Shown one piece after another: positions 12,873 through 53,979 of a DNA stretch of 64,000 bases. The position numbers and the translations under genes are program-made. Below the pieces are notes generated by a model. The model was not told the DNA's origin. It made no database searches and worked only from the letters and a program-made list of their open reading frames with translations. Origin of the DNA: Methanobacteriota archaeon (GTDB lineage Archaea > Thermoplasmatota > Poseidoniia > Poseidoniales > Poseidoniaceae); NCBI GenBank assembly GCA_002719815.1, contig PBET01000024.1:3393-67392 (forward strand). The letters run 5' to 3'. The stretch's first letter is position 1, and each line of letters starts with the position of its first letter.

Positions 12873-13499
12873 ATGAAGCAGGCAACAGACGTCTTCAACG
12901 ATTGGGCACACCGAGGCAAAGACGAGGGTATGGAACGTGGACACAGTCCTGCTGTCAATGAAATGTTGGAGGTTGCTTTCCAACGAGTCAATCAAGGAAA
13001 TCAACCCTTTTCATTCGCTGATTTAGGATGTGGAAATGGCTGGGTTGTACGATTGGTTGGTGGGCATGAGAACTGCATGCGAGCTGATGGTTTTGATGGT
13101 GCACCGCACATGATTGAGAAGGCAAACAACATTGATTCGAAACATGGTTATCATCTTGCTCTGTTTCCTGATACACAACCTCCTCAACAATACGATTTCA
13201 TTCATTCAATGGAATTCATTTACTACCTTCATGAACCTCAACAGATGCTACAATCAATTCACGACGATTGGTTGGCCGATGGAGGTTGGGCTGTAATTGG
13301 AATCGATCATTATGCGGAACATGAGGAAAGTCTTGGTTGGCCAGAAGCCCTCGATGTACATATGTCGACATTTACAGAGCAGGAATGGATTGCAATGTGG
13401 AATGACGTTGGATTTACTGAAATTCATGCGTGGAGAGCAAACCAATCCGAAGGAAAACCAGGAACACTCGCCATCATTGGGAAGAAAAATCAGAATTGA
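12873..13499 (+). CDS. Class I SAM-dependent methyltransferase
   Basis: The SAM-binding motif I FADLGCGNGW is present. ATG at 12873 (MKQATDVF) is preferred over ATG 12819. The 3' end overlaps the convergent AddA-like gene by 26 nt. Confidence 0.65.
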   Translation: MKQATDVFNDWAHRGKDEGMERGHSPAVNEMLEVAFQRVNQGNQPFSFADLGCGNGWVVRLVGGHENCMRADGFDGAPHMIEKANNIDSKHGYHLALFPDTQPPQQYDFIHSMEFIYYLHEPQQMLQSIHDDWLADGGWAVIGIDHYAEHEESLGWPEALDVHMSTFTEQEWIAMWNDVGFTEIHAWRANQSEGKPGTLAIIGKKNQN

Positions 13500-16400
13500 T
13501 CCCCAACTCAAGGCCCTGTGGTGCACACATTCGTACATCGCCATTGAAAAATGGACACTTTTTGCAGATATCAATCGCTTCCATTGGTAAGCGCTTCGGT
13601 TCGGTAACACCGTTTGAATCTGCAGTAAGGGTTGCCATCCAATGCAGGAGATTCATCAGTTCTTCTTCTGCTTCTTTGCACATCTTATCCGGCATTTGAA
13701 CAAGACGTCCCGTCGTGGCGATCAAGAGTGCTGGTGGCCGAATATCTCGTCTCTTTTCAATGGGTTTTCGTTCTTCTTGCTCACGCAAAACCAATGAATA
13801 AAGCATCAGTTGCAAACGATGATTTCGTAGCATCTGAACCTCCGCTTGGTTTTGTGGTTCAAACGAGAGCGGTTCATTCAGCGTCTCGTACAACGGGTGC
13901 AGTTCGAGTTCTTCCTCTCGCGCACCTGTTGTTTTCAAATCAATAACCTGCAACCAAGCCTGTTGATCTTCACATCCTGCAACCACAAGATCTGCCTGCC
14001 CTTCAAAGAGAACATTGACCGCATCAATCACTGTTCGAAATGACTGGTCAAGTTCTGTGAGTGGTGTTCTCAAACGACCTTTCAGGTCGATTTGTTGATT
14101 GAAAGAAAACGACAACTCCGTTCGCAACCCTTCGATTTCATGGCCATGAATCGCTTGACCTTCGACCATTTTTCCTAAAGCTCCATTTGATAGTCGTTTG
14201 GCCAAATCAATGATTCGTTGCCTCGTTTGCTTCTGTTCATCGCTGGACAATCGATGCCACTCGGGTTGTGATTGCGTTGCATCATCGATTTCCTTATCCG
14301 ATAACAGGTGGTTTTGTTGAGCATTCAACCAAACTTGTCCTAATTCAAAGCCTGTTGTCTTCATTTCTGCTGGATTTGCAATTCCAATTTCAACGAGTCT
14401 GTGGAACATCGATCCAAAGGCAGTTGCCGATGGCCAGCCGACAGAATTAGCCGTTACATCTTCCCCATCGGACCGATCTTTAGTATCCTCCTCACTCGAT
14501 TCGAACTTCGTTTCTTGATGGAGTTTGAAAGGCTCAGATTGCCAGCCTCGTACATGCGACAACCAATAGCGTCGTCGGCAGGAATGGGCCGTATCTAAGC
14601 CATGGGCTGTCATCTTTAACGTCGGGGTTTGATAAACAACGGCTTGTTCAATCTCACTGTCATCTGTCGCTTGTTCAACGAGTTGTTCCATGTTCAGCCA
14701 GTTGGAAAGTACGGAAGTTGGTGATTGTTCGGCAAAGCAATCAGGATGGTGATACATACGCAAGCTCTGTAGCGAATCTTGCATAAATCCACTCGACGTA
14801 TACAACGCATAGGGATCAAACTTCAACGTCTGCTCGCCATATTCTGCTAAACGTTCTCCTTGAACATCGTTGGTAAGACTCCAAGGCTGTTCATCGCCTG
14901 ATGCCAATCCCATGTATCGGAAACCTTCAAGCATCAAATCGCCCATGTTGTTCCCTTTTGCATTCACCTTCATCTCAACCATTGCATCATCACTCAACAA
15001 GCAAGGAGCATTTGGCGAGCCAACGAAGATCAAGCGATCTTTCACCCTGGTAAGTGCAACATAGAATTGACGACGCAATTCAGCTTGATTTTGTGCCTTG
15101 TTCATTTGTTCAGCCAACATCCACAAGGCATCTTCAGGCTTCTCTTTCGACTTCCATGGCTGAATACGGCCTGCAATTACATCTGGTGTAATCAAGACAT
15201 TGTTCTGAGCTTCAATGCTTGAACTGCGACGTCCTGCTTCAAACAATCCTGTGACGATCACAACCGGCGCTTGGAGACCTTTTGCCCCATGAATTGTCAT
15301 GATCTGAATCGCGCCACTTGTTGGTAAAGAACGGGCTTGGGGACCTTTGTTCCCAAGTGTTCCGAACGCCTTCATCTGATCAAGGATCGAGGCGGGTTCG
15401 TGTCCTGATTCACCACCTAATTTTTGCAACATTGCGTACCATGTTTCAGCAACTTGTCGTTCAGATTCATCTGGGAATGCGATGAGGAGATCGCTGTAAT
15501 CCAAGACAGCATCAAAGATTTCGTACATGGCGCCAGAATGTACCAAACGAGCGCATGCTTCCATGAGTGGCCCTTGAGGTTCGCCATCAAAATAGTCGGA
15601 AAAGAAGTGCCAATAATTGTCCACATCCTTCGTTTGGAAAATCTCCTCAATCTGTATGGATGATGCCCCAATAATTGAGGAACGAAGGACGGAATGGGCG
15701 GCATGTCTTGACCCTGGTCGTGCGAGAAGTTCCAACATAGCCATCAACGGTTGAACGACGGGTTGCTTGAGCAACTCACCTTGTTTATCAGCCATAACCG
15801 GCAATCCACGAGCTTGGAGTCGTGCGATTAAGTCGGGAATGTGCTTTCGTGAGTGGACGAGAATCATCACATCTTCAGGCAGAATTGGCTCTTCTGGTTC
15901 TACTTCAACAAAATCTTCCGCTTCTGTTGACCATATCCGAGTTGGTGAGCCTCGAACCAAGGCATCCAATCGAGAAGCGATAAGTTCATGTTCCAAATGA
16001 CGGAGATTTGCATTTCCTGCATCGAACAAGTTGTACCCTTGTGTAAGGCCAAGTGGTAGTTCCTCGGTATCGTTTTGAGTCGGAAGAAGCCACTCGATTG
16101 TCCCTATGCGTTCCGTATCTCGTCCAGATTCTAAGGGCTGAGCAGTTGCATGGAAATCGCCTGGGAATTGGTGATGCCGATGATTAAACGTGTCATCAAA
16201 CATATTGTTGAGCGTTTGAAGTAGGCCAGGTGCTGTTCGGAAATTCGTTCTCAGTTGAATATGGCCTTCGGCTCGTTCAACGATTGTATCATCATCGATG
16301 GCGAGACCTGCGTCGTCAATTCCATAGGAAACGTAGTCGTACGGAGCTGATTTCTCATCTCGGGAATAATCAGCGGCGGAGATGAATGAACCAGATTCAC

Positions 16401-18447
16401 CACCTGCGCCGACGGGCCGAGGATCTCGGCCGTGCCCTTCTTGAGTAAAAGTCTCCATCCGTTTCTCATTAGCCTCGATCTGGTTCGCTACACGAATGGA
16501 TGCAACCATTCGACGCATAACCGTAACCTCAGCCTGACGGAATCGGTAGATGCTTTGCTTCATATCACCAACAATGCAGATGGTTGGGTCCCAGGGACCT
16601 GCTGGTTCAGGGTGTTCTTCGGAAATGCCCTCTCTTCGCCCCCAAAGTCGCGAAAGGAGACGAGCATGTTCTGGATTCGTATCCTGATACTCGTCGATAA
16701 TGAAGGCTCGATATCGTGCACGAATTTGCTTTAATAGCGCAAATCTTCGTTGAAGATCAACGTATTTCTCTTCATCACGTTGCATAATGGTCAGTGCTCT
16801 TCGAATATGTTCATCCGACCATGGCTCATCACCAAGGTCATCCAATGCCTGGACAGCCTCGGGCGGATACCAATGACGAACGATGGCTGGACAGCGAACA
16901 AGGAGTAAATCGCCGACCATGACTTGAACATCGTCAAAATCATGCGCTTCTTCTTGTGCCTTCAAGTGACGAAGTAAATCCTGACAGCCTGAATGAACTG
17001 TATACAAATCGTTCAGAACTTCAACCTGAAGGTCACTAGAAACCCTCTGCATACCAGATGGTGGTTCGGTACCCAACGAAACGCCCAGTGGATGGCGGTC
17101 GTATTTTTCATTCGCATCTCGATGGACAAAAGGCCGTACAGGATTGAGGCAGTAGGCAACTTTTGCAAGCATCAACACCAGACGCCCATCACTTGGGTCA
17201 TGAATCCGGTTTTGCAAACGAGTTGCAGCCTTGGAAGCATCTTTCATGAGTTGTTCCTTGGTTGCCTCCTCAGATTTACGCTTGAAGACTGATGACCACG
17301 TCATCAAGCCTGAAGGCCAGTCTGCTAGCGTATTTGCTCGGGGGAAGTGCCCGTCCTTGAGAATGGTTGGTGCTGGCTCCTTCAACTGTGCATGCGATGC
17401 GGCCGCTGCAACCACCTGGTACAACCACTGAAGTTGTTCTATCGGAGTTGTAGGCAGTGCTTCCCGTGCCAAATGAGCGAGTTGATTGAAACGAGTATTT
17501 GTTGTAGCAACTTGCGCTGGAGCGACAATCACAGAATGATGTTCGAGGAAAACATCAACCCATTCGTTAAGGAATGCATGTACATCTTGAACGACCGGAG
17601 TGATAAGGTGGTGACACTCCTGTAAAATCATGTCCTCAATAAGTCGGTAATCTGGAGGTGTGTCACCATCCCATGGTAAACCAGTTCGAATCGAACGTGA
17701 GCGAAGCCGTCGCTTAGATTCCTCGACAAATAGCGACGATTCTAGCAATCCTTCCAATGCCGTTTGTGCACTTGCTTGACCTCCAAGCCGGATTGCGAGA
17801 CGATTGCGGGCAGCGATGAAAGCATCAGCTGATTGAAGCATGCCCGCTTCGATTGCATCGCGAGCATTTCGTATACGCCAAGCCGCATTCAATGCTTGAC
17901 TTCTCAAAAGAGGGGCTTTTTCTTCAGGAAGTTGTTCTCGACTGACGTGGATTGCTACGAGATCGATATGCGGTGAGAGAATTTCCGACAGGAACGCATC
18001 GATGGTCGATATTGGTGATGATTCAAGCAACGACATCAGCATCGAAACATCGCCTTGGTGACGCAGACGTGGGTCATGCATCCCCATTCGGTCATCGTCT
18101 TTTACAGGATGAGCACGAAGCGATTGAATCCTTTGTCGAATTCTTGACCGCAGTTCAGATGCCGCCTTTCGAGTGAAGGTAATCGCGACGATTTCTTGTG
18201 GCAACAGTCCTTTCCATTCATTCAATGGAGTGCGATCTTTCTTTGCTGCGAGAACGTGGCCTGCACCATACTGTTCCAACCGAATTGGTGGCGGCAAAAC
18301 ATGCGTAGCTCGTTGCTCTGCTGAAAGAAGATGCTGAACATATCGTTCAGCCATAACGGTGGTTTTACCTGTTCCAGCACCAGCATCCAATGCGATGTGT
18401 TGATCGAGATTAAGACCCAGTCGCTGACTTCTGTTGAAGGAAATCAC
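13474..18447 (-). CDS. AddA/RecB-like SF1 (UvrD-family) helicase fused to a C-terminal PD-(D/E)XK nuclease
   Basis: The helicase motifs occur in order: DAGAGTGKTT, ITFTRKAASELRSRI, IIDEYQDTN, VGDMKQSIYRFRQA, LRTNFRTAP, IMTIHGAKGLQAPVV, RRQFYVALTRVKDRLIF. The nuclease motifs are GQADLVV, VIDLKTTG and QLMLYS, flanked by Cys residues (SCRRRYW ... CKKCPFFNGDVRMC). The GTG start overlaps the upstream stop (GTGA at 18444-18447). Confidence 0.85.
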   Translation of the reverse strand: MISFNRSQRLGLNLDQHIALDAGAGTGKTTVMAERYVQHLLSAEQRATHVLPPPIRLEQYGAGHVLAAKKDRTPLNEWKGLLPQEIVAITFTRKAASELRSRIRQRIQSLRAHPVKDDDRMGMHDPRLRHQGDVSMLMSLLESSPISTIDAFLSEILSPHIDLVAIHVSREQLPEEKAPLLRSQALNAAWRIRNARDAIEAGMLQSADAFIAARNRLAIRLGGQASAQTALEGLLESSLFVEESKRRLRSRSIRTGLPWDGDTPPDYRLIEDMILQECHHLITPVVQDVHAFLNEWVDVFLEHHSVIVAPAQVATTNTRFNQLAHLAREALPTTPIEQLQWLYQVVAAAASHAQLKEPAPTILKDGHFPRANTLADWPSGLMTWSSVFKRKSEEATKEQLMKDASKAATRLQNRIHDPSDGRLVLMLAKVAYCLNPVRPFVHRDANEKYDRHPLGVSLGTEPPSGMQRVSSDLQVEVLNDLYTVHSGCQDLLRHLKAQEEAHDFDDVQVMVGDLLLVRCPAIVRHWYPPEAVQALDDLGDEPWSDEHIRRALTIMQRDEEKYVDLQRRFALLKQIRARYRAFIIDEYQDTNPEHARLLSRLWGRREGISEEHPEPAGPWDPTICIVGDMKQSIYRFRQAEVTVMRRMVASIRVANQIEANEKRMETFTQEGHGRDPRPVGAGGESGSFISAADYSRDEKSAPYDYVSYGIDDAGLAIDDDTIVERAEGHIQLRTNFRTAPGLLQTLNNMFDDTFNHRHHQFPGDFHATAQPLESGRDTERIGTIEWLLPTQNDTEELPLGLTQGYNLFDAGNANLRHLEHELIASRLDALVRGSPTRIWSTEAEDFVEVEPEEPILPEDVMILVHSRKHIPDLIARLQARGLPVMADKQGELLKQPVVQPLMAMLELLARPGSRHAAHSVLRSSIIGASSIQIEEIFQTKDVDNYWHFFSDYFDGEPQGPLMEACARLVHSGAMYEIFDAVLDYSDLLIAFPDESERQVAETWYAMLQKLGGESGHEPASILDQMKAFGTLGNKGPQARSLPTSGAIQIMTIHGAKGLQAPVVIVTGLFEAGRRSSSIEAQNNVLITPDVIAGRIQPWKSKEKPEDALWMLAEQMNKAQNQAELRRQFYVALTRVKDRLIFVGSPNAPCLLSDDAMVEMKVNAKGNNMGDLMLEGFRYMGLASGDEQPWSLTNDVQGERLAEYGEQTLKFDPYALYTSSGFMQDSLQSLRMYHHPDCFAEQSPTSVLSNWLNMEQLVEQATDDSEIEQAVVYQTPTLKMTAHGLDTAHSCRRRYWLSHVRGWQSEPFKLHQETKFESSEEDTKDRSDGEDVTANSVGWPSATAFGSMFHRLVEIGIANPAEMKTTGFELGQVWLNAQQNHLLSDKEIDDATQSQPEWHRLSSDEQKQTRQRIIDLAKRLSNGALGKMVEGQAIHGHEIEGLRTELSFSFNQQIDLKGRLRTPLTELDQSFRTVIDAVNVLFEGQADLVVAGCEDQQAWLQVIDLKTTGAREEELELHPLYETLNEPLSFEPQNQAEVQMLRNHRLQLMLYSLVLREQEERKPIEKRRDIRPPALLIATTGRLVQMPDKMCKEAEEELMNLLHWMATLTADSNGVTEPKRLPMEAIDICKKCPFFNGDVRMCAPQGLELGINSDFSSQ

Positions 18448-21400
18448 TTTGTTTCACCTCCAATGGATGCAGAAGAGCACGCACTTGCGAGTGAACAATA
18501 CTTGCAGTGATCTCCTGGTGCAGGATGATTCCAGCCGAGTTCACTTGCATCCTGTGCCCGGATTGCGGCAGTAATTCTTGAACTCATCCACGCCCGGAAA
18601 CTGTTACTCTCCGGTGTTGTTCCTTCAGTTGGTATACGGAAATGATTTCCAGAGTAAAACGTTCGAGTTCCGATGGTTCGGCTTTCCTCAAGAAAAGCAA
18701 AACTCGGATCGAGTTCAAGGAGATGTTCCGTATCATCGCCCACTTCTGAGATACCAACGCCAATGACGCGATCGCCTGGATGTGCTAATTCCCAAGCACG
18801 AGCATAGAGTGCTAATTGAATCTCCTTGAAGAGGCCCGCGACATGTCGAATGCCATCTTCACCAGGTTTTGGTCCTTCGATGGTTTTGAGGTCTCGAATG
18901 ATGATGAAGCGCTTCGCAGGAGGTCCACTTCCATCAAAGAAAAGTGGCATCCCTTCTGCGCTCTCATCATAGAGCCCACGCTCGGTTAGTCGTTCAAGGA
19001 GCGATTCATCGAGAACAAGGTGATCAACGCGATCAATTCGCCCACGTAACTTGATGCATGAGGTTTCAAATTGATCATCAAACCCTTCGATTTCTACACT
19101 CAACTCCGTTCCATGTTGCAACGCCCATTCACTGGCAATTGGTGCTGCTGAGGTCAGGTTGAGATCTGCTAAAAGTAGACGTCCGAGTCGCCCTCCAATC
19201 GGAAGCGTTCCGTTGCCTTCAAGCCAATCGTTCCAATCTTCAGGCGAGCAGCCAATCAAATCATTGCAGCGATGAACGGAAACTGCATTTGTTCTCGATA
19301 ACCAGGGAGCGATTTCAGACAAATGCCAGAGCAAACTTTCCCATATTTCTTGGTTTGATAGTGAAGTTCCTTGATGCATTGGCGTACCTTCGGCCAGTGG
19401 CGTCCCTCCTACTTCAATTCCAAGAAGTGTCATGAGATGTTCCTCAATGGCATGAACCAACGTTCCTTTTGTGAGTGGCGCAATGTCTTCAGAGGGCTCG
19501 GGAGTGTTGTCCGTGGCATCGAGTGTCTGTTCAGACCATGCTTGTCGGGGGCAAGTCAGCCAAGGTGTTAATCGGCTTGTTGACCATGTCTTTGATTCCG
19601 TTTCGATCGGTTGACTGGAAAGAATTTCGTTCAGGCTTGGTGAACCATACGTAGGCGGAGGAAGCGGACGAGGGTCGAGTGAAGGCCCCCTCGAATTGCC
19701 ATTCTTCTTGTATCCGAGATGCGGATAGGATGCTGAGGTTCGACCACCACTCACCTCGGCTTGAGAGACCGTGGGTTCGATGACAAGGCCCGTTGTTGTG
19801 AGCAAGCTCTCCCGTATCTCCCATGGCAGAATGCTTCCATTTGCAAGTGGCTTGAATTTTGGTTGGCGACGATAGCGATCGAGATGCACATCGCGTTCAA
19901 ATCGATTCGCTATGGTATTCGCTGACTGAATCGTTCCACTCGGAGTCCGCAACGCTTTCAATTCAAGACCAGTCTGTTGTTGCAGATCTCGTTGCATGTT
20001 CTCTGCTCGTTCAAGTTCCACTTCACCACCGTTCACAGATAATGAAGAAGTTCGATATGTCAGCCAATTTCCTGTTTCTCGAGTCACAATTGACCATCCA
20101 GCACCATCAGAAACTTCTTCCTGCAGGAACGCTGGAATGGCCGCAAGATTCCGTAAATCACCTTGCAGTTCAACGCCTGAAAGGTACTCGACAACCGGTG
20201 TCGAATTACCCGCAGATTCATCATGTTCGGTATCGAAGAGGATCACTTGTTGGCTTGAATTTAGCACAGATTTGAAGAGATGACGCGCCTGACGAACGGG
20301 TAAGTCTCCATCATTCAAGCCTAATTCGACTCGAACAGAATCGTCAATCCAAGGCACTCGCTCAGGCTTCATCGACCATGACTCAGCATCAATTCCAACG
20401 AAGAGAGTGAGGTCCGATGCTACCCCAAACGCTTGCTTTGGTGTACAGATATGTACATCGAAATGACGAACTCGATTCATAGGTAGTTTGGTTTGATCGG
20501 CTGCTAACCGACAAAAATCAATGAATGGAAGACTCGACTGATATTGGAGCAAACCATCAACGGATCGGACCCATGATTGCACGGCACCTACGGAGGCATC
20601 GTAATGCCGTGTACGTTCAAACAACGCCTCCCAGTCACATGCATGTAAAATTGTGCTGAGTACGTCTCGTGGCGTTTTACTTGGCTCGGGCAAGGGTAGA
20701 GAAATGTTTGATGACGCGCCAACGAATGGATTCGCAAGGAAGTTTTTCTCGGTTTCATCGAGTAACGCAGTCCATGATGTTGCAAGGCATTGCAACCACC
20801 ACTGCGTCTCCTCAATCGCTCGCAATTCTTCCTCACGACGATAGGCTTCAACAGCATATGGTTTTGCAACAGCTAAAGAGCCAAGCCACCGTTGGAGCGC
20901 TCCTTTTCCGCCAAGAACGTGGAAACTGCGGCCGATGTTTTCAATCACGTCCAAGTGTGGCCTTGGCCGCCAATCCTTCTTTTCTGGATGGGTCAAATCG
21001 GAAAACAATTTGCCAATAATCGGGAACGCCTTTGACTGGGCGATATCGAACAGTTTAGCTGTTGACCATGCATCTTGGCCATTGGGAATTGACAGAAATC
21101 GAAGTATTGCTTGTATAGCAGAGGTACTTCCAACTGAATCTGCTTGAGTATCGCATGTAATTCCAATGCGCTGCAGACGGCGAATCCATTCCTTGTGGCG
21201 GCCCTTGTCGGCATCGATGAGAAGAATACGTCCTTGTTCATGCTTGTTGAAATGATTGATGACTGAAATTGCGGCATCTGGAATCTGCGAGGCTCGGTCG
21301 AAACTCAGTAAGTGGATTCCTTCTGTCGCGTAATCAGCGTTACCGGATGCTGGAGGCAGAACGGTATGACGTGGGACCCATTCTGGCAGTTGGTCATCGC

Positions 21401-22148
21401 GTTCCAAAAGCGGTAGTTCATCATCGATGTATGCTCCATGAAATCCGAGACGGAATGAGCCTGTGACACAAAGATGATGGATTGGGCTTCGCACTGATAA
21501 GGCCTTGAGAAACTGCTTCTCATCTTCATGAAAGTCAGGCGGATGGTTGAGAAGGAGGATACCACGAATTGCTCCAAGCGTGTAAGGCGTTGGAACATTC
21601 AAATCGGCGAGTGCTGAACAAATTCGGGCGATGACGTGGTGCTCATGCAGAAGATTTTCGTTTTCAAACGATGAAAGAATCCGATCTGCTTCAAATGCGC
21701 CGGGATCTTCTTCCCACGTCGAAAGGATACCATGTTTTGTTGCATACGCATGGAGAGAAAGCAAACGCTCTGATTTTGAAAGTGTCCATGGCCTGGTCAC
21801 GTCGGGATGGAGGCGAGGAAAACGATGATCTTGCGCTGCAGAGGCAAACTTTTCGTGAACTTGTACAAGACCAGTCGATGTTCTTGGCACAAGAACAGGT
21901 AGTCGGAGATCGATCGTTAAGGACTTCAAGAGTCGTTGAAGCGTTGTGTGTCTGCTTGAATCAACAGAGCCCGCTTTCTGAAGAATGGCCTGGATAGACG
22001 AGGACCGAGTGACTTCATTCGGATAGATGACCAATAAATCGTCCCGTCCTGTTGCAATTTCATCCACAACCCAGGACGGGACGGTCGTATCGAAAGGGCA
22101 TGACTCTACTGTGATGTTCTCAGCCATATCCTCCCCACCCATCTTCAT
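18444..22148 (-). CDS. AddB-like subunit: long helicase-like scaffold without Walker A plus a C-terminal RecB-type nuclease with Cys4 (Fe-S staple-type) signature
   Basis: I found no GxGKT motif. The C-terminal motifs are GRIDRVD, IIIRDLKT and QLALYARAW, bracketed by LTCPRQAW and HCKYCSLASAC (C-x2-C-x5-C). The gene is translationally coupled to the AddA-like gene. Confidence 0.6.
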   Translation of the reverse strand: MKMGGEDMAENITVESCPFDTTVPSWVVDEIATGRDDLLVIYPNEVTRSSSIQAILQKAGSVDSSRHTTLQRLLKSLTIDLRLPVLVPRTSTGLVQVHEKFASAAQDHRFPRLHPDVTRPWTLSKSERLLSLHAYATKHGILSTWEEDPGAFEADRILSSFENENLLHEHHVIARICSALADLNVPTPYTLGAIRGILLLNHPPDFHEDEKQFLKALSVRSPIHHLCVTGSFRLGFHGAYIDDELPLLERDDQLPEWVPRHTVLPPASGNADYATEGIHLLSFDRASQIPDAAISVINHFNKHEQGRILLIDADKGRHKEWIRRLQRIGITCDTQADSVGSTSAIQAILRFLSIPNGQDAWSTAKLFDIAQSKAFPIIGKLFSDLTHPEKKDWRPRPHLDVIENIGRSFHVLGGKGALQRWLGSLAVAKPYAVEAYRREEELRAIEETQWWLQCLATSWTALLDETEKNFLANPFVGASSNISLPLPEPSKTPRDVLSTILHACDWEALFERTRHYDASVGAVQSWVRSVDGLLQYQSSLPFIDFCRLAADQTKLPMNRVRHFDVHICTPKQAFGVASDLTLFVGIDAESWSMKPERVPWIDDSVRVELGLNDGDLPVRQARHLFKSVLNSSQQVILFDTEHDESAGNSTPVVEYLSGVELQGDLRNLAAIPAFLQEEVSDGAGWSIVTRETGNWLTYRTSSLSVNGGEVELERAENMQRDLQQQTGLELKALRTPSGTIQSANTIANRFERDVHLDRYRRQPKFKPLANGSILPWEIRESLLTTTGLVIEPTVSQAEVSGGRTSASYPHLGYKKNGNSRGPSLDPRPLPPPTYGSPSLNEILSSQPIETESKTWSTSRLTPWLTCPRQAWSEQTLDATDNTPEPSEDIAPLTKGTLVHAIEEHLMTLLGIEVGGTPLAEGTPMHQGTSLSNQEIWESLLWHLSEIAPWLSRTNAVSVHRCNDLIGCSPEDWNDWLEGNGTLPIGGRLGRLLLADLNLTSAAPIASEWALQHGTELSVEIEGFDDQFETSCIKLRGRIDRVDHLVLDESLLERLTERGLYDESAEGMPLFFDGSGPPAKRFIIIRDLKTIEGPKPGEDGIRHVAGLFKEIQLALYARAWELAHPGDRVIGVGISEVGDDTEHLLELDPSFAFLEESRTIGTRTFYSGNHFRIPTEGTTPESNSFRAWMSSRITAAIRAQDASELGWNHPAPGDHCKYCSLASACSSASIGGETK

Positions 22149-22239
22149 GCGTGGCGACAGTATAAAACTGAACGTTCAAAATTTTGTTATTTTTTGTAGG
22201 GTGTTGGCATTTTTCATCGATTCTGAGGTGGATGTCGGA

Positions 22240-22293
22240 TAACATGAATTGTAACATGAATAATTCATGTTTTGTATAATTCAGAACATGAAT
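22240..22293. promoter_or_regulatory. Operator-like array: three direct (T/G)AACATGAAT copies and a perfect 19-bp palindrome AACATGAAT-A-ATTCATGTT
   Basis: The direct copies lie at 22240-22249, 22252-22261 and 22284-22293. The palindrome spans 22253-22271. A further ATTCA-N5-TGAAT lies at 22279-22293. The array ends 7 bp upstream of the TATA-like box. Confidence 0.5.
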
Positions 22294-22300
22294 CGTTGGA

Positions 22301-22308
22301 TTTAAATA
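22301..22308 (+). promoter_or_regulatory. Archaeal TATA-box-like element TTTAAATA upstream of the TFB-like gene
   Basis: It matches the TTTAWATA archaeal consensus. It lies 114 nt upstream of ATG 22422, which is itself preceded by AGGAGG (22409-22414). Confidence 0.45.
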
Positions 22309-22421
22309 GTACGGCGTCCATAAAGATACTCCAGCGCGTCGGTCCGAGCCCAATCCCACTTATTCCACCAACCCCTCGGACTTAATCATGTTGGAACAAA
22401 CAAGAACAAGGAGGACAAAAT

Positions 22422-23495
22422 ATGACGAAAAAGTGTGAAGAATGTGGCAGTTATGACTTGAAAGCGGACAACATCCGAGGCGAGGTGGTTTGCAACGATT
22501 GTGGACTTGTCATCGAGGATCAAGCCTCGGCGACCCAAAACGACAATGCAGGAACAATGTGGGGCGAAAATGCATCCAACACTCCGACCAAAGATGAAGC
22601 CAAGATTAAGACTGGCTCGAAGGGTAATGCGCTTGGTTCCTACATCGGTAAGCCAAATGAAGCGAAGGGCAAGTGGAAAATCCTACGACACCTGCACGCT
22701 CGAGATGTCAAGGACCTGCACCCAATGGCGCAAGCTACGATGGATGCTGCAAAGGAGTTGGCTGGCAAGGACAACGCCATGAAGGCGAAGAAAGTCATCA
22801 CCCTAGCGACCGTTCCACTCGATGATGAGAAAGCGAAGGCGTTGCGAGAAATCGCTGATGAGGAGGAAATCATCCTTCCAAAGAACTCTGTTTGCCGAAA
22901 GAAAACCCGAGGGGGAAGCACCCAGAACAACGAGAAGTTGCTTGCGCTGGGTTGTCTGCGAGCACATCAGGAGCGAACTGGCAAAATCAACATCGATTGG
23001 CCCCAGATGGTTGAAGGCACTGGTTTGACCATGGCTCAGGTTGTTGATGCTGCAAAAGTCATCATGAAGTACCTTAATCTATGCGAGAAAGCGCATCTTA
23101 TCGAAGAGCGAGCAGACCGAAGAACTGTTCATCTCGAGTTGCGAAACACCGAAATCGAGAACACTACGCTTCGACTGAAGCAACTTCTCGAAGATGTTGA
23201 TGAATCCGTGAAGACGCAAATCATGGACGATTACAAGCAACGACTCTTCACCTTGGGTGAGCCGACATTAGGCGGTTCACCGTTCTCAAGCGAGAACATT
23301 GAGGCCAAGGTCCTCTGCGCAATTCTCTTCCAAATCTCATGCGAGTCCTTTGGTGTTGAACAAGGACGGCTCGAGAACATCGCTCATGCGATTGGTCGAT
23401 GTCGAAACACCATCAAGAACCGCCTCAAGTCCCTTCGAAAGAAGGTGGCGTCTGGTGAGCTGGTTGACTTTGGTGTCTTGCAGAAGAAGCACTGA
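22422..23495 (+). CDS. Divergent TFB-like protein (TFIIB-type N-terminal zinc ribbon)
   Basis: The N-terminus KKCEECGSYDLKADNIRGEVVCNDCGLVIED is a TFIIB-type ribbon. The remaining roughly 320 aa are helical and basic. I cannot align them confidently to the B-reader (GPEWRAF) or the two cyclin repeats. Confidence 0.5.
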   Translation: MTKKCEECGSYDLKADNIRGEVVCNDCGLVIEDQASATQNDNAGTMWGENASNTPTKDEAKIKTGSKGNALGSYIGKPNEAKGKWKILRHLHARDVKDLHPMAQATMDAAKELAGKDNAMKAKKVITLATVPLDDEKAKALREIADEEEIILPKNSVCRKKTRGGSTQNNEKLLALGCLRAHQERTGKINIDWPQMVEGTGLTMAQVVDAAKVIMKYLNLCEKAHLIEERADRRTVHLELRNTEIENTTLRLKQLLEDVDESVKTQIMDDYKQRLFTLGEPTLGGSPFSSENIEAKVLCAILFQISCESFGVEQGRLENIAHAIGRCRNTIKNRLKSLRKKVASGELVDFGVLQKKH

Positions 23496-23503: not shown

Positions 23504-24442
23504 ATGGATTATCTCATTAAGGAGAGGTTCGTCCAGCGATACATGACTCGATTGCTCGTTGTTGGAGTTTTAGTTGTCCTGATGGTTTCTGTTGTACCTG
23601 TAGCGCATGCTGCGGAGATTAAAGAACTTGAAACAGGCATGCTCTTTGGTGGACTTCATGGAATGGCGAATGAGACCATCGTCGTCAACAGTAGCCTAGA
23701 AGATCTTCCTGCAATTGCTGAAGATTACACAGCCACCTGGTGTGGAAATTGTGTTGAAGTCGGCAATGCGCTCGAGACTGTGGCGGAGAACATCAGCATG
23801 GAGATCTATGCTGTTCATCGGAACATCTACGAGACTCAGGATCCACTAGGCAACGAGAATGTCGACGCACGCTTTAGGGACCGATACGATATCTATGCGC
23901 CAGAATTCAAACCTCCTGTGGCCGGTATCAATGGCAAGTACTCCCTTCGTGGTAGCAACCCTGTTGGTGATTCTCTGGAATCTGACTTTGCAGACTTAGC
24001 ATCACAACCGCATAATCTTGGAGATGGTTCCGTCACAATGACATGGACACCAACGGGTGATAATTCAGGAACTGTCGCTTGGAGCATTGATCAATCAACC
24101 AGTGCAGTTTACAATGTAACCATATGGATGGTCGAGAAAGAAGCTTACTTCCCAGATGGTACAAACAACCAGATCTACTACCATCACATTGTTCGTGAAA
24201 TCATTGATGTGGGAACTGTTACTGAAACTGGACTGAGTACGGGAACTGAGCAGATTACCTATGCCGATGCATACGATGATGATGACCTTGAAGTCCATAT
24301 CATGTTCCATGAGTACATCGAACGTCCTGAAATACAAGACGAGACCCCAACAGAACCTACCTCAGAGGATACACCCTTCCTCTCCATGCCTTTGACGATA
24401 CTTGCCCTTCTTGCAGTAGCCCTACGGCGACAGGATCAGTAG
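23504..24442 (+). CDS. Membrane-anchored extracytoplasmic thioredoxin-like protein
   Basis: An N-terminal signal/anchor (LLVVGVLVVLMVSVVPVAHA) is followed by the thioredoxin-type motif YTATWCGNCVEV. A C-terminal hydrophobic anchor (PLTILALLAVALRR) closes the protein. Confidence 0.45.
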   Translation: MDYLIKERFVQRYMTRLLVVGVLVVLMVSVVPVAHAAEIKELETGMLFGGLHGMANETIVVNSSLEDLPAIAEDYTATWCGNCVEVGNALETVAENISMEIYAVHRNIYETQDPLGNENVDARFRDRYDIYAPEFKPPVAGINGKYSLRGSNPVGDSLESDFADLASQPHNLGDGSVTMTWTPTGDNSGTVAWSIDQSTSAVYNVTIWMVEKEAYFPDGTNNQIYYHHIVREIIDVGTVTETGLSTGTEQITYADAYDDDDLEVHIMFHEYIERPEIQDETPTEPTSEDTPFLSMPLTILALLAVALRRQDQ

Positions 24443-26673
24443 AAATCAACCATGTTTGCGTGAAGTCGAGCATCAACTTCTGGCATGCGATCAGGCGGAC
24501 GTCCCACCTCGATGAAACGAAGAACGTAATCATCGATGTTTGCAAATCCAAACTCTTCGGTCATCGGTTCCATGAGTTCTCGCAACGCCTGTCGAGGATC
24601 TGCAATTGGGAAATCTCGACGGATGAAGACTTGGTTTAATTGACGATAACGTGCATGTCTGTATCCCAAAATCTCAAGGATTCGGCGAAGTGCATCTTCT
24701 TCTTGGGCAGATCGGATGGTTAGTCGCAAACGACATCCTTGCATCCGGAACATTCCACGCACACCACCGAGTTCGACCTGATGGCCAATCGGTTGCAGCG
24801 AAAGTGCCTCCCACACCAGTGGCATCGTTCGATACCAGCGATAGAATTGATCATCTTGACGAGGCTCTCTGGGTTCTTCTTCATTCTGAAACGGGGGATT
24901 TACAACAAGATTCTCTCGGATTTGTTGCCATCGAGGGAAGATGACTTGTTGTTGCAACCTCTGACGATAAAAATCTCCTTCTAAGATTTGATCATCATCA
25001 AATTCGTAATCAAAATCTGGATTTAAGTGGCCAGGCATATCGAAACCAACTTCCCGACCGGGACGTTGTTTCCAGTCTGCAACAATTTCCTCATCAGTCA
25101 TCAATTTCAAAGAACGGAATGCGATTGGTTCTTCTTCTTCCCCATCACCAAGGAGAAGACGATGAAGATGAAATCTGTGTTGCTTCCCAGATCGCTTGTA
25201 GAAGTCTTCTGGGTCCGCCCCTGTGTCTTTTTGAGCTACCCCGATTGGTGGCTGGGTCAGCAAATGCATCTGCAAACTATTCACCCGTTTCGAAGTCGTG
25301 ACATCTGAGAGAAGCGAGAGTATGACAATTGCAATGGTATCCCCTATCGGGATATCTTTGTGGTAGTTTCCTGTATGAATGCAAATCGAATGCCGATGCG
25401 TCACAGTCTTACCAACACCATGAATTTTGAAAGGTGCATTGTGTGCACCACGACCAATTCGAACCTCGTAGAAATGGCCAAGCATCCCTCGAACGAGCAT
25501 GCGGTCTCGATGAACCCAGGTATCGTTCGGGAATTGTTGAAGAACGCCTCGCAAAAATTGCATTGAACGGCGGAAGGGGACATTCGCAGTCTCAGCATTT
25601 TCATATGCTGCCGTCCAATTCATCTGCGTAGCAATGAGCCATTCGCCTTCTTTGGAACCGTGTGGGGAAGATCCCCATGAAATCAATCCAGCCAAGAGGC
25701 CTGGCACGAAGGGAATTTTTGCTCGGCGTACACTTCCATTCTTCGCCAATGTTCTAAAACAGAGATTTCCCTTAGAATTGACCATAAATGGGAAACTAAC
25801 ATTTGCATGTTTCACGGATTCTGACAACTCAATCCAACGTTGAACCCAGGGCCATTGTGAAGGCGGAATCGCCCTATTTTCTTGGTTCCGAATAAAGCGC
25901 CGTGCAAATTTCATCCGTTGTCTTGGTCGACGACCTGCCATTCGTTCCATCAAGTGGGACGACCAATCAGACCCGTCAGAAAAGAGTGGTTTCTTTTTAC
26001 GGCGCTCGTTTTGATCTAAGAGAAACGATGTTTGGACAAATACATCAAAGGGAGAAAGGAGTTCACGTTCAAATTGTCCAAACAGTCGATGGTAACGCTG
26101 TAGGATTCGTCGAGGGCGTCCTTGAGGATCGAGTGTTTGGTACAACCCACTCAACGCTAAGAAGAGCTTGACGAGATCCCAACCTTTGCGTTCTTCAGGA
26201 TTCAGGAGAAGCAAGAGGTACTGCTCCATCGGAATTCGAGCCTCGTGAATCCGCCCGTCGATGGTCATTCGTCCATCGATAAATGCGAGAAGCGTTCCAT
26301 CCCACATCACGAAGCCTTCCTCAAGGCGTTCCTTTTCGTAACCAGAATAACCTGTTTGCTTTTCGAGTTTTTCAATAAAGATGGACTCTTCTTCTTCGGG
26401 AAATGGGGAGTGGCGGACGGGATCTTGATCCGCCTCATCAAGACGGGCCCAGTCAACATCGGGCGTATGATTCATGAAGCGTTCGAGATTTCCCCAGCGC
26501 TTTTTCAATGAACGAACTGGCCCGCCAAGGACCGATGCCATGCGTTGATGGACTTCAAGAGGCAACGATGGTGCCCATTTACTCTCTTCGGTCAATTCGA
26601 TGCAGCGTATGCAGATTGGACAATTCGTTTCAGTATTTTCATTTTGGCAGATGCCACAGGCTTCCCCAATCAT
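24436..26673 (-). CDS. Large orphan protein with an N-terminal Cys5 zinc-ribbon/treble-clef-like motif
   Basis: ATG at 26673 gives MIGEACGICQNENTETNCPICIRC; the track start at 26709 is TTG. I recognise no other family motif with confidence. It lies directly downstream of ltaE on the same strand. Confidence 0.5.
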   Translation of the reverse strand: MIGEACGICQNENTETNCPICIRCIELTEESKWAPSLPLEVHQRMASVLGGPVRSLKKRWGNLERFMNHTPDVDWARLDEADQDPVRHSPFPEEEESIFIEKLEKQTGYSGYEKERLEEGFVMWDGTLLAFIDGRMTIDGRIHEARIPMEQYLLLLLNPEERKGWDLVKLFLALSGLYQTLDPQGRPRRILQRYHRLFGQFERELLSPFDVFVQTSFLLDQNERRKKKPLFSDGSDWSSHLMERMAGRRPRQRMKFARRFIRNQENRAIPPSQWPWVQRWIELSESVKHANVSFPFMVNSKGNLCFRTLAKNGSVRRAKIPFVPGLLAGLISWGSSPHGSKEGEWLIATQMNWTAAYENAETANVPFRRSMQFLRGVLQQFPNDTWVHRDRMLVRGMLGHFYEVRIGRGAHNAPFKIHGVGKTVTHRHSICIHTGNYHKDIPIGDTIAIVILSLLSDVTTSKRVNSLQMHLLTQPPIGVAQKDTGADPEDFYKRSGKQHRFHLHRLLLGDGEEEEPIAFRSLKLMTDEEIVADWKQRPGREVGFDMPGHLNPDFDYEFDDDQILEGDFYRQRLQQQVIFPRWQQIRENLVVNPPFQNEEEPREPRQDDQFYRWYRTMPLVWEALSLQPIGHQVELGGVRGMFRMQGCRLRLTIRSAQEEDALRRILEILGYRHARYRQLNQVFIRRDFPIADPRQALRELMEPMTEEFGFANIDDYVLRFIEVGRPPDRMPEVDARLHANMVDFY

Positions 26674-26705
26674 GGGGATACTGAATGTCGAGGTGTTAAA
26701 AAGTT

Positions 26706-27752
26706 TCAATGAAGAGATGACAACGCTTCAATGACGTTTTTTACATCTTCATCCGTGATATGAAGATGTGTTACAATTCGACAATGTGTTGGAGAAATAT
26801 CGAACATATCGATGCCTGCCTTTGCCATTCTTTCAGAAACTTCACTGGCCGAATGATCGTTCGCTGAGAAGTAGACCATGTTGGTTTGGACGGCGTTAAG
26901 GTCAACCGATACATGATCCATTTCATCGATTGCTTGTGCGATGGTTAATGCTCGACGATGATCTTCTTCCATCCGTTGAACGTTATTTTCAAGGGCATAA
27001 ATCCCTGCCGCAGCAAGAATTCCAGATTGACGCATACCTCCACCAAACATCTTTCGCCATCGATGCGCTTGTTCAATGAATTCAGTCGATCCGACAAGAA
27101 CAGAGCCTACAGGTGCTCCAAGGCCTTTGGAAAGACAAATGGATACTGAATCATAATCTCGAGTCATGCGAGGCAAAGGCGTCTTGGTGGCAACTGACGC
27201 ATTGAAAATTCGAGCACCATCGATGTGTGTTGAACAGTTCTTTTCCTTCGATACCTCTGCAATCGCATCGAGAACGTTTTGCTCATAACACGTCCCTCCT
27301 CCACGGTTCGCTGTGTTTTCAACACAGACAAGGCTTCCATCTGGATAATGCGATTGTGAACCACGTTGTTTTCGAATTGCCTGTTGAACAAGTTCAGGCG
27401 TAAGAAGACCATTGACTCCTTCCGGAAGAGCAACGCTTGAACCGCACAAAGCAGCGTATCCACCCCCCTCATAAAGATAGATGTGGCTGTAACGCTCGGT
27501 TACGATCTCATCACCAGGGACTGTGTGTGTCTTGAGTGCGACTGCATTCGACATCGTTCCTGATGGAACAAAGAGACCCGCTTCTTTTCCACACATTTCC
27601 GCAACCATTGCTTCAAGGCGCTGAACTGTTGGGTCGTCGCCTAAGACATCATCGCCTACTGCAGCATCTGCCATTGCTTGTCTCATCGGTGCAGTCGGTT
27701 GAGTGACTGTATCCGAACGCAAATCAATTCGGTTCGATTCAATGTCTCGCAT
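26706..27752 (-). CDS. ltaE: Low-specificity L-threonine aldolase
   Basis: Motifs DLRSDTVTQPT, VGDDVLGDDPTV, GLFVPSGTMSN, ENTANRGGG and HIDGARIFNA are present. Confidence 0.85.
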   Translation of the reverse strand: MRDIESNRIDLRSDTVTQPTAPMRQAMADAAVGDDVLGDDPTVQRLEAMVAEMCGKEAGLFVPSGTMSNAVALKTHTVPGDEIVTERYSHIYLYEGGGYAALCGSSVALPEGVNGLLTPELVQQAIRKQRGSQSHYPDGSLVCVENTANRGGGTCYEQNVLDAIAEVSKEKNCSTHIDGARIFNASVATKTPLPRMTRDYDSVSICLSKGLGAPVGSVLVGSTEFIEQAHRWRKMFGGGMRQSGILAAAGIYALENNVQRMEEDHRRALTIAQAIDEMDHVSVDLNAVQTNMVYFSANDHSASEVSERMAKAGIDMFDISPTHCRIVTHLHITDEDVKNVIEALSSLH

Positions 27753-38291: not shown

Positions 38292-39035
38292 GGGATCATT
38301 GATTGCATCGTCATCATCGGGCGAAGGCAGCAACGGTGTAGCGCTCTCAATGATTTCTTGAACAGATTGCTCAATACTTCGAGCATTTTCAAGCATCGCC
38401 GATAATGGAATTTCTTTCCCGGTCATTTCTGTAATGGCTTCGATAGCAACAGCTGCAGCACGAACATCAGGATACATTGGACTCGCTTCAGAAAGCAAAG
38501 CAGTGATATCGAGATTGAGCCGATCACCTTCACTCAAGAGGAATCCAGTAATTCCAGATACAATACCACGTTGAATCGTCTGTAAATCAAGCGATTTCAA
38601 TCGATCTCTCGCTACAGCATTCGCCCCAACTGCGAACAAGCCCTCACCTTGAATTTGTTTTTCGGGCTTGAGAATTCCATCGATGATGATCAATTGATCA
38701 AAGCCTCCTACTCTGAACCACTCAAGAACCGTTGAACCAAAGGCAATATCTTGTTCCTTCTCAAATTGAATTTCAGCAGTAAAAACACCAATTCCATCGC
38801 CTTGGTAAACACGAACTGGGTGTCGAGGCACTTCATTTTGAATCAAAGCGACAGCTGGAAAGTTCTCATCCATAACCGTCCCTAGTTGTGTAAGATTGAG
38901 TGATTCAATGATGTGAGAAGCGGCAATAACGCCGACCATTCCTGCCGTAGTAAAGCCACAGATTGCGACGCCACCTGTGGTCGGGTCAACACCTGAACGA
39001 AGAACAAGGTCATACGTTCCGAACTGTTGTTTCAT
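38280..39035 (-). CDS. PAC2-family proteasome assembly chaperone homologue (PbaA/PbaB-like)
   Basis: The segment ICGFTTAGMVGVIAASHIIESL is typical of the PAC2 family N-terminus. The acidic C-terminal tail ends DPSFG. Confidence 0.65.
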   Translation of the reverse strand: MKQQFGTYDLVLRSGVDPTTGGVAICGFTTAGMVGVIAASHIIESLNLTQLGTVMDENFPAVALIQNEVPRHPVRVYQGDGIGVFTAEIQFEKEQDIAFGSTVLEWFRVGGFDQLIIIDGILKPEKQIQGEGLFAVGANAVARDRLKSLDLQTIQRGIVSGITGFLLSEGDRLNLDITALLSEASPMYPDVRAAAVAIEAITEMTGKEIPLSAMLENARSIEQSVQEIIESATPLLPSPDDDDAINDPSFG

Positions 39036-53899: not shown

Positions 53900-53979
53900 G
53901 AACGAGGGCTGGCCTTGAAGAACATGAAACCTACGCTTGAAGCCGAAAGTGTTGAATGCCTCCTTGTTGAGTTTCACCT

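Follow-up and report, generated by a model that had tools for sequence, protein, structure and literature searches.

The DNA analyzed here is a 64-kb window from the genome of a Poseidoniaceae (Marine Group II, MGII) archaeon, in which the gene for a divergent protein of the TFB family stands back to back with an AddB-AddA operon (Table 1). The TFB-like open reading frame (ORF) is real and under purifying selection. It does not owe its existence to chance, because the protein has 64 close homologues (99 to 50% identity), the gene is present in 34 GTDB species genomes, and dN/dS is 0.04 to 0.08 over the whole coding sequence (CDS), similar to the values of neighboring genes. Since the genome scan used a narrow alignment (A1), its matches are all Poseidoniaceae; further homologues of the protein were found at 22 to 29% identity. 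According to the ORF listing, the window holds no earlier in-frame start codon between the upstream stop and the ATG, and in many orthologues, according to an intergenic alignment, the start codon at this site is TTG. Database versions of 386 to 391 amino acids (aa) were rejected as a true N-terminal extension: their extra part is translated 5' untranslated region (UTR), including the Shine-Dalgarno sequence, and in the genomes that carry them the aligned start is TTG.

Table 1. Features at the TFB-like locus (positions are those of the 64-kb window)
Feature	Position	Strand	Remarks
AddA-like helicase-nuclease, 1657 aa	13474..18447	-	PF00580, PF13361, PF12705
AddB-like nuclease subunit, 1234 aa	18444..22148	-	PF12705, E 1.4e-11; divergent to TFB-like gene
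Putative TATA box TTTTATAC of AddB-AddA operon	22160..22167	-	Conserved in aligned Poseidoniaceae loci, not in L035; presumed function
Conserved element TTTGTTATTTTT	22183..22194	.	Between the two promoters (intergenic alignment)
Extra distal operator half-site AACATGAAT	22241..22249	+	Exact 7-mer core at this position seen in the window only
Perfect palindromic operator AACATGAAT-A-ATTCATGTT	22253..22271	.	9+1+9; upstream of TFB-like gene's TATA box
Conserved operator half-site AACATGAAT	22285..22293	+	BRE-proximal; TATA box 7 bp downstream
Putative TATA box TTTAAATA of TFB-like gene	22301..22308	+	Conserved across Poseidoniaceae (intergenic alignment)
Conserved half-site-like AATCATGTT in 5' UTR	22384..22392	+	~30 nt ahead of start codon
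Shine-Dalgarno GGAGGA	22410..22415	+	Ahead of TFB-like CDS
CDS, divergent TFB-family paralogue	22422..23495	+	357 aa; ATG at 22422, stop TGA at 23495 (ORF listing)
TFIIB-type zinc ribbon, aa 4-34, CxxC-x15-CxxC	22431..22523	+	PF08271; presumed RNAP dock-binding module
Segment at B-reader/B-linker position, aa 35-99	22524..22718	+	Predicted disordered, pLDDT <50
Cyclin-like repeat 1, aa ~100-227, remodelled	22719..23102	+	Helix between 'LP' and 'RG.S' shortened, extra helices before it
Cyclin-like repeat 2, aa ~228-345	23103..23456	+	hhalign, phmmer, 1ais_B profile match
C-terminal helix-turn-helix of repeat 2, aa 314-343	23361..23450	+	hhalign; model helices 314-323, 328-343
312-aa membrane/secreted protein, WCGNC thioredoxin-like motif	23504..24442	+	8 nt downstream of TFB-like gene

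The N terminus carries the TFIIB-type zinc ribbon that the first-pass annotation had recognized. It matches PF08271 (E = 4.9e-9, 36 bits against a cutoff of 29) as well as the ribbon of Pyrococcus furiosus TFB (1pft), and its cysteines, arranged as C5-x2-C8-x15-C24-x2-C27, are all four invariant among 26 family members. Farther along, the conserved B-reader/B-linker sequence of TFBs (GPEWRAF ... DKGLST.IG) is lacking. That no GPEWRAF-type signature could be seen had been remarked earlier, and we likewise did not find the motif in the protein: 'NAGTMWGEN' occupies the equivalent position, 'KGNALGSYIG' stands where canonical TFBs have DKGLST.IG, and the reader/linker segment by itself shows no significant similarity to a canonical TFB profile (E = 0.26). 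KGNALGSYIGKP resembles the linker 'DKGLGSFIGKP' of one canonical TFB, P0112. Within the Poseidoniaceae alignment A1 the segment is strongly conserved (NDNAG.MWGE, NTPT, KIKTG.KGN.LGSYIG, and GKWK), while G48 is its sole invariant residue across the whole family. On the basis of the low dN/dS and of this conservation in a segment predicted to be disordered, we concluded that the gene is functional.

Curated libraries recover the N-terminal ribbon alone. PF00382 gave no match up to E = 10 in the ~260 aa behind it, and the 27.7 bits scored against the NCBIfam TFB model NF001658 (cutoff, 384) come entirely from the ribbon; 10 distant family members likewise fail both models. These results fit the earlier remark that the rest of the protein could not be aligned by eye to the cyclin folds. 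The fold and profile searches proposed at that stage did recover the repeats. Full-length hhalign comparisons with canonical TFBs covered 264 to 283 columns (Prob 98.6 to 98.9, E = 6e-16 to 3e-17), the core without its ribbon still matched over both repeats (Prob 88.8, E = 2.5e-6), and repeat 2 was found even alone (Prob 93, E = 2.8e-7). For repeat 2 there is also a direct phmmer match to the second-repeat region of a canonical TFB (P0096, aa 298 to 409) and a profile match to 1ais_B (aa 129 to 194). Repeat 1 alone is undetectable by sequence against canonical TFBs (E = 0.17), and its assignment is based on an AlphaFold2 model, built on 21 sequences, in which pLDDT is 80 to 90 across aa 100 to 357. 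The top 15 Foldseek matches of the protein are without exception chains of TFIIB, Brf, or TFB. The best structural matches are to Brf1, to TFIIB, and to the core of P. woesei TFB, the last with 176 of 193 core residues aligned at 3.2 Å, and in both fold searches TFIIB, Brf, and TFB rank above Orc6 and cyclins. At the C-terminal helix-turn-helix, hhalign pairs RCRNTIKNRLKSL with the canonical BRE-reading VTEVTIRNRYQEL and 'NTIKNRLKSL' with 'VTIRNRYQEL', so that T-I-K-N-R of the recognition helix falls on T-I-R-N-R.

Because the profile-profile match and the AlphaFold model together give two repeats and a helix-turn-helix, the protein is, as judged from these comparisons, a complete TFB-family member, neither ribbon-only nor decayed: it has a ribbon of the CxxC-x15-17-CxxC type, two cyclin-like repeats, and, in repeat 2, a helix-turn-helix predicted to contact DNA. 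The suggestions of a 'degenerate' TFB and of a 'ribbon-only RNAP-binding regulator' both found no support, given that the ~260 aa form two cyclin-like repeats with a TFB-type helix-turn-helix, and that purifying selection acts on the gene. Since repeat 1 lacks the helix found between 'LP' and 'RGRS' in canonical TFBs, the protein may bind TBP differently or not at all.

The description of the protein as a highly divergent TFB paralogue was upheld once TFBs were counted. Published annotation of MGII genomes other than the window's own, from which the co-occurrence with canonical TFBs is taken, lists two K03124/arCOG01981 TFBs at other loci in one MGII metagenome-assembled genome (MAG), so the TFB-like gene is not the sole TFB, nor is it the most conserved. 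In the MGII reference genome those two have different best matches, MG2_0083 and MG2_1391. For one of the recognizable MGII TFBs, 308 aa long, the comparison of MGIIb with the reference genome gives 622 bits. KEGG TFIIB belongs to the core of both MGIIa and MGIIb, with reported counts of 150 of 158 and 90 of 92 genomes, respectively. No canonical TFB was found inside the 64-kb window. Positional orthologues of the TFB-like protein across Poseidoniales share ~24% identity, the lowest value among 13 syntenic genes, compared to ~78% for canonical TFBs between euryarchaeal orders. Given the two recognizable TFBs in published MGII annotations, we concluded that the TFB-like protein is not the housekeeping factor. 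All members of its family found so far come from Marine Group II (Poseidoniales).

The divergent arrangement with an AddAB-like operon, proposed from the sequence, was confirmed by Pfam nuclease and helicase domains in the 1657-aa and 1234-aa proteins. AddA combines a UvrD-type SF1 helicase with a C-terminal PD-(D/E)XK nuclease, AddB is an adjacent PD-(D/E)XK subunit, and MGII orthologues are annotated as addB (Prokka name) and addA (K16898). The synteny comparison that had been suggested showed the divergent AddB/TFB-like pair to be kept in four deeply diverged lineages, in one of which both flanks differ. The pair sits in a block where some 12 unrelated genes keep their order just as well, so that adjacency says little about a functional link with AddAB; it is also all that speaks for a possible connection of the TFB-like gene to DNA repair and for the stress or DNA-damage role first suggested. 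On the other side, the 312-aa gene, whose product has no Pfam match, keeps its same-strand adjacency to the TFB-like gene but is inverted in L055, and the two are possibly cotranscribed in Poseidoniaceae. In the MGIIb MAG SIMO Bin 19-2 the order is AddA-AddB-310 aa-ThrAld; as the slot lacks the TFB-like gene there, at least some lineages can dispense with it.

A complex operator had also been noted ahead of the gene, and it proved to be real. Of the 9 AACATGAAT half-sites over the whole 64 kb, four fall within 52 bp, and two of these build a perfect 9+1+9 palindrome that is unique in the window. The palindrome, with the consensus AACAWGAA-N3-TTCWTGTT, is present in 37 of 42 fetched family loci, including those of the distant lineages L035-37 and L055-56, once per locus and always upstream of the TFB-like gene. 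Throughout the order both palindrome and half-sites keep their position, and neither occurs elsewhere in each ~20-kb locus, on which basis we concluded that the TFB-like gene is regulated. The putative TATA box TTTAAATA, assigned from the archaeal promoter consensus, would leave a 5' UTR of ~90 nt. Rfam gave no match in the window, so none of the conserved elements of the 5' UTR and the intergenic region belongs to a known RNA family.

These observations suggest that Poseidoniales have in this gene a third TFB/TFIIB-family member, specific to their lineage and acting as a regulated alternative initiation factor, a reading to which we assign a probability of about 0.5. The ribbon would dock on RNA polymerase, the cyclin core would sit on TBP-bound promoter DNA, and the helix-turn-helix would read a BRE-like element, with the factor presumably serving a subset of promoters beside two conventional TFBs. 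Divergence of the reader/linker and remodelling of repeat 1 could alter which promoters are preferred, how efficiently they open, or how TBP is contacted. Expression of the gene would itself be set by a probably dimeric DNA-binding protein recognizing the palindrome AACAWGAA-N3-TTCWTGTT and the related half-sites that flank the TATA box. The AddAB operon is a candidate target or coregulated unit. A more specific proposal, which we regard as unlikely, is that this clade-specific, episodically fast-diverging factor is a dedicated initiation factor or coactivator of a DNA-break or UV response, switched on via the AACAWGAA-N3-TTCWTGTT operator and driving the adjacent bacterial-type AddAB end-resection operon.

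Compared to canonical archaeal TFB (Pyrococcus; 1PFT for the ribbon, 1AIS/1D3U for the core-TBP-DNA complex), the TFB-like protein is alike in domain order and size but has a core identity of only ~12 to 15%, fails PF00382 and the NCBIfam cutoff (27.7 versus 384 bits), lacks GPEWRAF, lacks the LP-RGRS helix in repeat 1 while having extra helices there, and diverges far faster between clades (24% identity in one order versus ~78% between orders). P. furiosus TFB2 and the haloarchaeal TFB paralogues are also extra copies beside a housekeeping TFB; TFB2 is induced by stress (heat shock) and, like the TFB-like protein, has no conserved B-reader/B-finger motif. Those paralogues are readily recognized by TFB sequence models, whereas the TFB-like protein is not. 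Sulfolobus TFB3 is truncated. Like the TFB-like protein it is a nonessential TFB-family paralogue without a canonical reader, and the two may share a DNA damage theme, which for the TFB-like gene comes only through its AddAB neighbors. The TFB-like protein is full length rather than of the TFB3-type truncated architecture (ribbon plus partial core), belongs to another phylum, and is not orthologous. For TFB3, UV induction and an activator role are reported as experimentally shown (PMC6101594). A Brf1-type C-terminal extension is missing from the TFB-like protein, and because archaea have a single RNAP, a polymerase-specific role like those of the eukaryotic TFIIB-like factors Rrn7/TAF1B and Brf1 does not apply.

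An alternative, to be taken tentatively and with less confidence than the reading above, is an auxiliary factor with a role like that of TFB3, which binds RNAP via its ribbon and activates or competes with complexes of the housekeeping TFB, with no TBP-DNA nucleation of its own. Such a role would suit the missing B-reader signature, a remodelled repeat 1 whose shortened helix lies in what is the TBP-contacting repeat of canonical TFB, a ribbon that is the best conserved module, and a gene that at least one lineage does without; the precedent of a TFB paralogue activating DNA-damage-responsive genes is TFB3 (PMC6101594). Against such a role, the protein, in contrast to truncated TFB3, still has its two cyclin repeats as well as a TFB-like helix-turn-helix bearing T-I-K-N-R, and this argues for retained contact with DNA and promoter. 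Recruitment of the cyclin scaffold outside transcription, as in Orc6, as a partner, binding DNA or protein, of the AddAB end-processing machinery or of replication proteins, seems improbable, slightly more so than the dedicated DNA-break factor: the intact ribbon is a dedicated RNAP-dock module, Orc6 is outranked by TFIIB, Brf, and TFB in both fold searches, and the gene is divergent to AddAB, not within one operon with it.

Two further explanations have very little to recommend them. A fast-evolving housekeeping TFB of the window's organism would account for the full TFB architecture and for the failure to find a canonical TFB within the 64 kb, but we consider it highly unlikely in light of the two recognizable TFBs elsewhere in MGII genomes (one, of 308 aa, at 622 bits), the ~24% identity across the order against ~78% for canonical TFBs between euryarchaeal orders, and the slot left empty in one MAG. 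Less credible still is the idea of a remnant, decaying or reduced to its ribbon, whose C-terminal part has no structured function. It would explain why Pfam and NCBIfam recover nothing but the ribbon, yet it is contradicted by a dN/dS of 0.04 to 0.08 over the whole CDS, by 78 invariant columns among the aligned Poseidoniaceae sequences (A1), mostly within aa 102 to 349, and by a confident helical model homologous to the TFB core.

Among the archaea of the surface ocean, Poseidoniales are dominant, and because they are uncultured, their gene regulation is known from sequence alone. If the alternative-factor reading holds, standard annotation has overlooked a third TFB-type factor in the basal transcription machinery of these archaea, and the family's well-defined, order-wide operator offers a concrete handle on its regulation. 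The protein also appears to be a natural example of a TFB in which repeat 1 and the reader/linker have drifted far while the ribbon and BRE-reading helix-turn-helix have stayed. Were the DNA damage proposal true, a euryarchaeal circuit would have arisen independently as the counterpart of the one built on TFB3 in crenarchaea.

Sequence searches yielded no canonical TFB assignable to Poseidoniales, and several candidates were rejected. P0112 is carried on a marine contig without assignment; P0258 and P0249, from Tara data, cluster with TFBs labelled Hydrothermarchaeales by NCBI; and P0252 and P0219 occur in the context guaA-purE-TFB-Gar1-TFB, which we took as Methanomassiliicoccales-like. P0112 is the canonical TFB nearest to the TFB-like protein in the N-terminal part. 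A literature search for a described MGII TFB paralogue returned nothing specific, and NCBI names family members 'TFIIB-type zinc ribbon-containing protein' or, for many entries, leaves them nameless. There was no sign of a viral origin of the gene, and no viral copies were found in IMG/VR, nor by tblastn among 50,697 phage and archaeal-virus records, a set to which the Poseidoniales virus ON649702 does not belong. A TFB is shown on the published genome map of that virus.

The ORF at 22422-23495 (+), preceded by GGAGGA at 22410-22415, encodes a 357-aa TFB-like protein. Its sole Pfam match, above threshold, was the TFIIB zinc ribbon (PF08271; aa 4-34, E = 4.9e-9), and no TFIIB cyclin repeat was detected by Pfam. 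The NCBIfam TFB model covered aa 3-35 only, scoring 27.7 bits where the cut-off is 384, and the only match in a PDB sequence search was the Pyrococcus TFB ribbon (1pft). The divergently transcribed neighbors are both large; the AddA-like gene encodes a UvrD helicase plus PD-(D/E)XK, and the AddB-like gene encodes PD-(D/E)XK. These results agree with the first-pass annotation, which had described a recognizable ribbon, an unrecognizable remainder, and divergent AddAB-like genes. Many orthologues have TTG at the aligned start position. Database versions of 386 to 391 aa (homologous proteins P0002, P0007-P0044, and others) were rejected as over-extended calls in which the 5' leader is translated: the excess of ~29 to 34 aa includes the GGAGG Shine-Dalgarno sequence, and the aligned true start is TTG.

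Behind the ribbon, profile and fold searches matched the TFB core. In profile-profile alignments the TFB-like family matched canonical TFBs from the ribbon through the helix-turn-helix (HTH) at the C terminus (probability, 98.6 to 98.9; E = 6e-16 to 3e-17; 264 to 283 columns), and with the ribbon deleted, as a check that it was not the source of the match, the cores still matched over both repeats (probability, 88.8; E = 2.5e-6). Compared alone with canonical TFBs, repeat 2 gave a probability of 93 (E = 2.8e-7), and neither repeat 1 (E = 0.17) nor the reader/linker (E = 0.26) showed significant similarity. Using phmmer, aa 232-342 directly matched the region of canonical TFB P0096 that holds the second repeat, and the recognition helix NTIKNRLKSL aligned with the canonical VTIRNRYQEL. 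The best alignment of repeat 1 placed LPKNS..CRKKTRGGS opposite LgLP..(helix)..RGRS, with most of the helix that joins the two motifs in canonical TFBs absent. An AlphaFold model from 21 sequences is disordered over aa 31-99 and confidently all-helical over aa 100-357 (pLDDT, 80 to 90); each of its top 15 Foldseek matches was a TFIIB, Brf, or TFB chain. The protein is thus a full TFB-family member in which, judged by sequence, the ribbon and second repeat/HTH are still recognizable and the reader/linker and first repeat have drifted past detection. The predicted structure suggests that repeat 1 is a cyclin-like repeat.

Pairwise dN/dS of the TFB-like gene was 0.04 to 0.08 wherever dS was unsaturated, the same range as for AddA, AddB, threonine aldolase, and Pth2. 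Such values make a decaying remnant scarcely credible and, with the core match, contradict the degenerate or ribbon-only protein that the first-pass annotation had offered among its options. Within Poseidoniaceae the predicted disordered segment at aa 35-99 shows strong conservation, as expected if it becomes ordered on a partner; the TFB reader/linker likewise gains order only on a partner. Divergence is episodic and falls between clades, since identity is 85 to 97% inside subclades, matching or exceeding that of AddA and AddB, and falls to 54% and 24% from one major clade to another, under every neighbor gene (window versus loci L003, L024, and L035). The 24%, against the distant locus L035, is the lowest among 13 syntenic genes. 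Canonical TFBs, in contrast, are ~78% identical across euryarchaeal orders.

All Poseidoniaceae loci share the order hydrolase, methyltransferase, AddA, AddB, opposite-strand TFB-like gene, 312-aa protein, 757-aa protein, threonine aldolase, and Pth2. All three of the 22 to 29% identical relatives looked up occupy the same slot and are thus positional orthologues: P0146 (L035-37) and P0161 (L053-54) lie in the Poseidoniaceae gene order, and P0105 (L055-56) adjoins AddB between flanks that both differ (peptidase M20 upstream, other genes downstream). The divergent AddB/TFB-like pair, kept at each of these loci, is the neighborhood's most stable element. Genes 1050-1054 of the MGIIb MAG SIMO Bin 19-2 read M20-AddA-AddB-310 aa-ThrAld with the TFB-like slot empty (PMC9723583), an apparent lineage-specific loss showing that the gene is not always retained. 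A dozen unrelated genes keep their collinearity just as well, and adjacency therefore gives weak support to a functional link with AddAB; a DNA-damage role is hypothesized from this adjacency, the one observation pointing to it. The 312-aa protein (23504-24442, +) begins 8 nt past the TFB-like stop codon and has a signal/TM segment at its N terminus, a thioredoxin-like WCGNC motif, and a hydrophobic anchor at its C terminus. The fast-diverging 757-aa protein has an N-terminal CGIC...CPICIRC cysteine cluster; in MGIIa, L035, and L053 its gene and the TFB-like gene are syntenic, but in L055 other genes take its place. Neither protein has a Pfam match.

The control region (22149-22421) holds four AACATGAAT half-sites inside 52 bp, of nine in the whole 64-kb window, and no other window match to the full palindrome has fewer than three mismatches. 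With at most one mismatch, AACAWGAA-N3-TTCWTGTT occurs in 37 of 42 fetched family loci, exactly once per ~20-kb locus and always ~170 to 230 bp upstream of the TFB-like start, distant L035-37 and L055-56 included. Its position is common to L001-L037 (not L003) and L055-56; it is missing from L003, L053/54, and three loci without upstream DNA. The complex operator described at first pass is borne out as a palindrome plus half-sites at a position conserved across the order, and the palindrome type suggests a putative dimeric regulator. Candidate promoter elements were assigned from the archaeal consensus, and the likely TATA box would leave a ~90-nt leader. Just 12 nt separate the listed AddB start, ATG 22148, from the conserved TATA-like TTTTATAC; translation probably begins instead at ATG 22127 (MAENIT...), with GGGGAGGA before it (22127-22148, minus strand).

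Features of the control region and genes compared with distant locus L035
Feature	Coordinates	Remark	Identity, window versus L035 (%)
AddA	13474-18447 (-)		45
AddB	18444-22148 (-)		36
GTATAAAA, AddB side	22160-22167	TTTTATAC on minus strand; intergenic alignment	
TTTGTTATTTTT, conserved element	22183-22194	intergenic alignment	
Half-site flanking palindrome	22241-22249		
Perfect palindrome AACATGAAT-A-ATTCATGTT	22253-22271	formed by two of the four half-sites	
Half-site abutting BRE position	22285-22293	intergenic alignment	
TTTAAATA, likely TATA box	22301-22308	intergenic alignment	
AATCATGTT, half-site-like, in leader	22384-22392	intergenic alignment	
757-aa protein	24436-26709 (-)		30
PQQ-repeat protein			34
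Threonine aldolase			65
GatE			69

No canonical TFB lies within the 64-kb window, and sequence-based searches for a canonical Poseidoniales TFB found none. For the paralogue count proposed at first pass we turned to published annotation, which describes other genomes of the same order and not the window's own. SIMO Bin 19-2 has two recognizable TFBs at other loci, both K03124 (PMC9723583; Damashek et al. 2021, Supplementary Table): gene 531 (308 aa; euryarchaeal TFB orthologous group, 524 bits; best match MG2_0083, 5e-190) and gene 374 (326 aa; arCOG01981, 242 bits; highly transcribed; best match MG2_1391, 1e-98). Their best matches are two distinct genes of the MGII reference genome. KEGG TFIIB was reported in 150 of 158 MGIIa and 90 of 92 MGIIb genomes, a category that could in principle take in some divergent TFB-like family members (PMC6336850; Tully 2019, Supplementary Data 10). 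By these annotations the TFB-like gene is a paralogue within the order, and the two K03124 TFBs make it highly improbable that it is the housekeeping TFB itself. Elsewhere among archaea, canonical TFB paralogues exist in tandem: an unrelated contig, which we guess to be of Methanomassiliicoccales-like origin, carries TFB-Gar1-TFB (L051 110-2514; 323 and 310 aa, both PF00382-positive). Gene 55 of SIMO Bin 19-2, a 73-aa ORF named tfb_1 by Prokka and adjoining a PrsW protease, is possibly a ribbon-only protein (PMC9723583).

We favor, at a probability of roughly 0.5, a regulated alternative initiation factor whose promoter preference is altered, whose ribbon would dock on RNAP, and whose core/HTH would sit on TBP-bound DNA. 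Loss of the reader signature and remodeling of the first repeat speak for an auxiliary factor like Sulfolobus TFB3, modulating complexes made by the housekeeping TFB, and we consider this main rival a tentative possibility. That the protein serves as a non-transcriptional cyclin scaffold seems unlikely.

Extra TFB copies are common in archaea (haloarchaeal paralogues, Pyrococcus TFB2, and Sulfolobus TFB2 and TFB3). Unlike these, the TFB-like family escapes curated models past the ribbon, is so far known only from Poseidoniales-type marine contigs, and carries an order-wide conserved operator; no earlier description was found in the literature searched. The 64 close homologues (99 to 50% identity, ~357 aa) come from marine metagenomes, and the single named one is called [quoted passage not shown] by NCBI. 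Scanning GTDB with a single genome for each species recovered the gene from 34 genomes, titled mostly as Poseidoniaceae, Poseidoniales, or broader archaeal ranks; two with bacterial names (L002 and L021) are presumably mis-binned contigs. When 1.84 billion cluster representatives were searched exhaustively with phmmer, ~20 more full-length relatives emerged, just 22 to 29% identical. In 10 of these scanned with Pfam, the TFIIB-type ribbon was the only family reaching threshold, and three lacked any ribbon match. Phage and archaeal-virus records and IMG/VR yielded no copies.

Further DNA-metabolism genes lie at 58829-60949 (-), 52745-53977 (-), and 51943-52770 (+), encoding LigA (a BRCT-bearing NAD+-dependent DNA ligase), a stand-alone PD-(D/E)XK nuclease, and an exonuclease of the RNase T/DnaQ-like type. 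These are mainly bacterial types, and AddAB adds to this set in the archaeal window. RCC1-repeat, EF-hand, and two PAC2 (proteasome assembly chaperone) family proteins, with domains associated mainly with eukaryotes, are encoded at 9898-11778 (-), 4597-6558 (-), 38280-39035 (-), and 53980-54777 (+).
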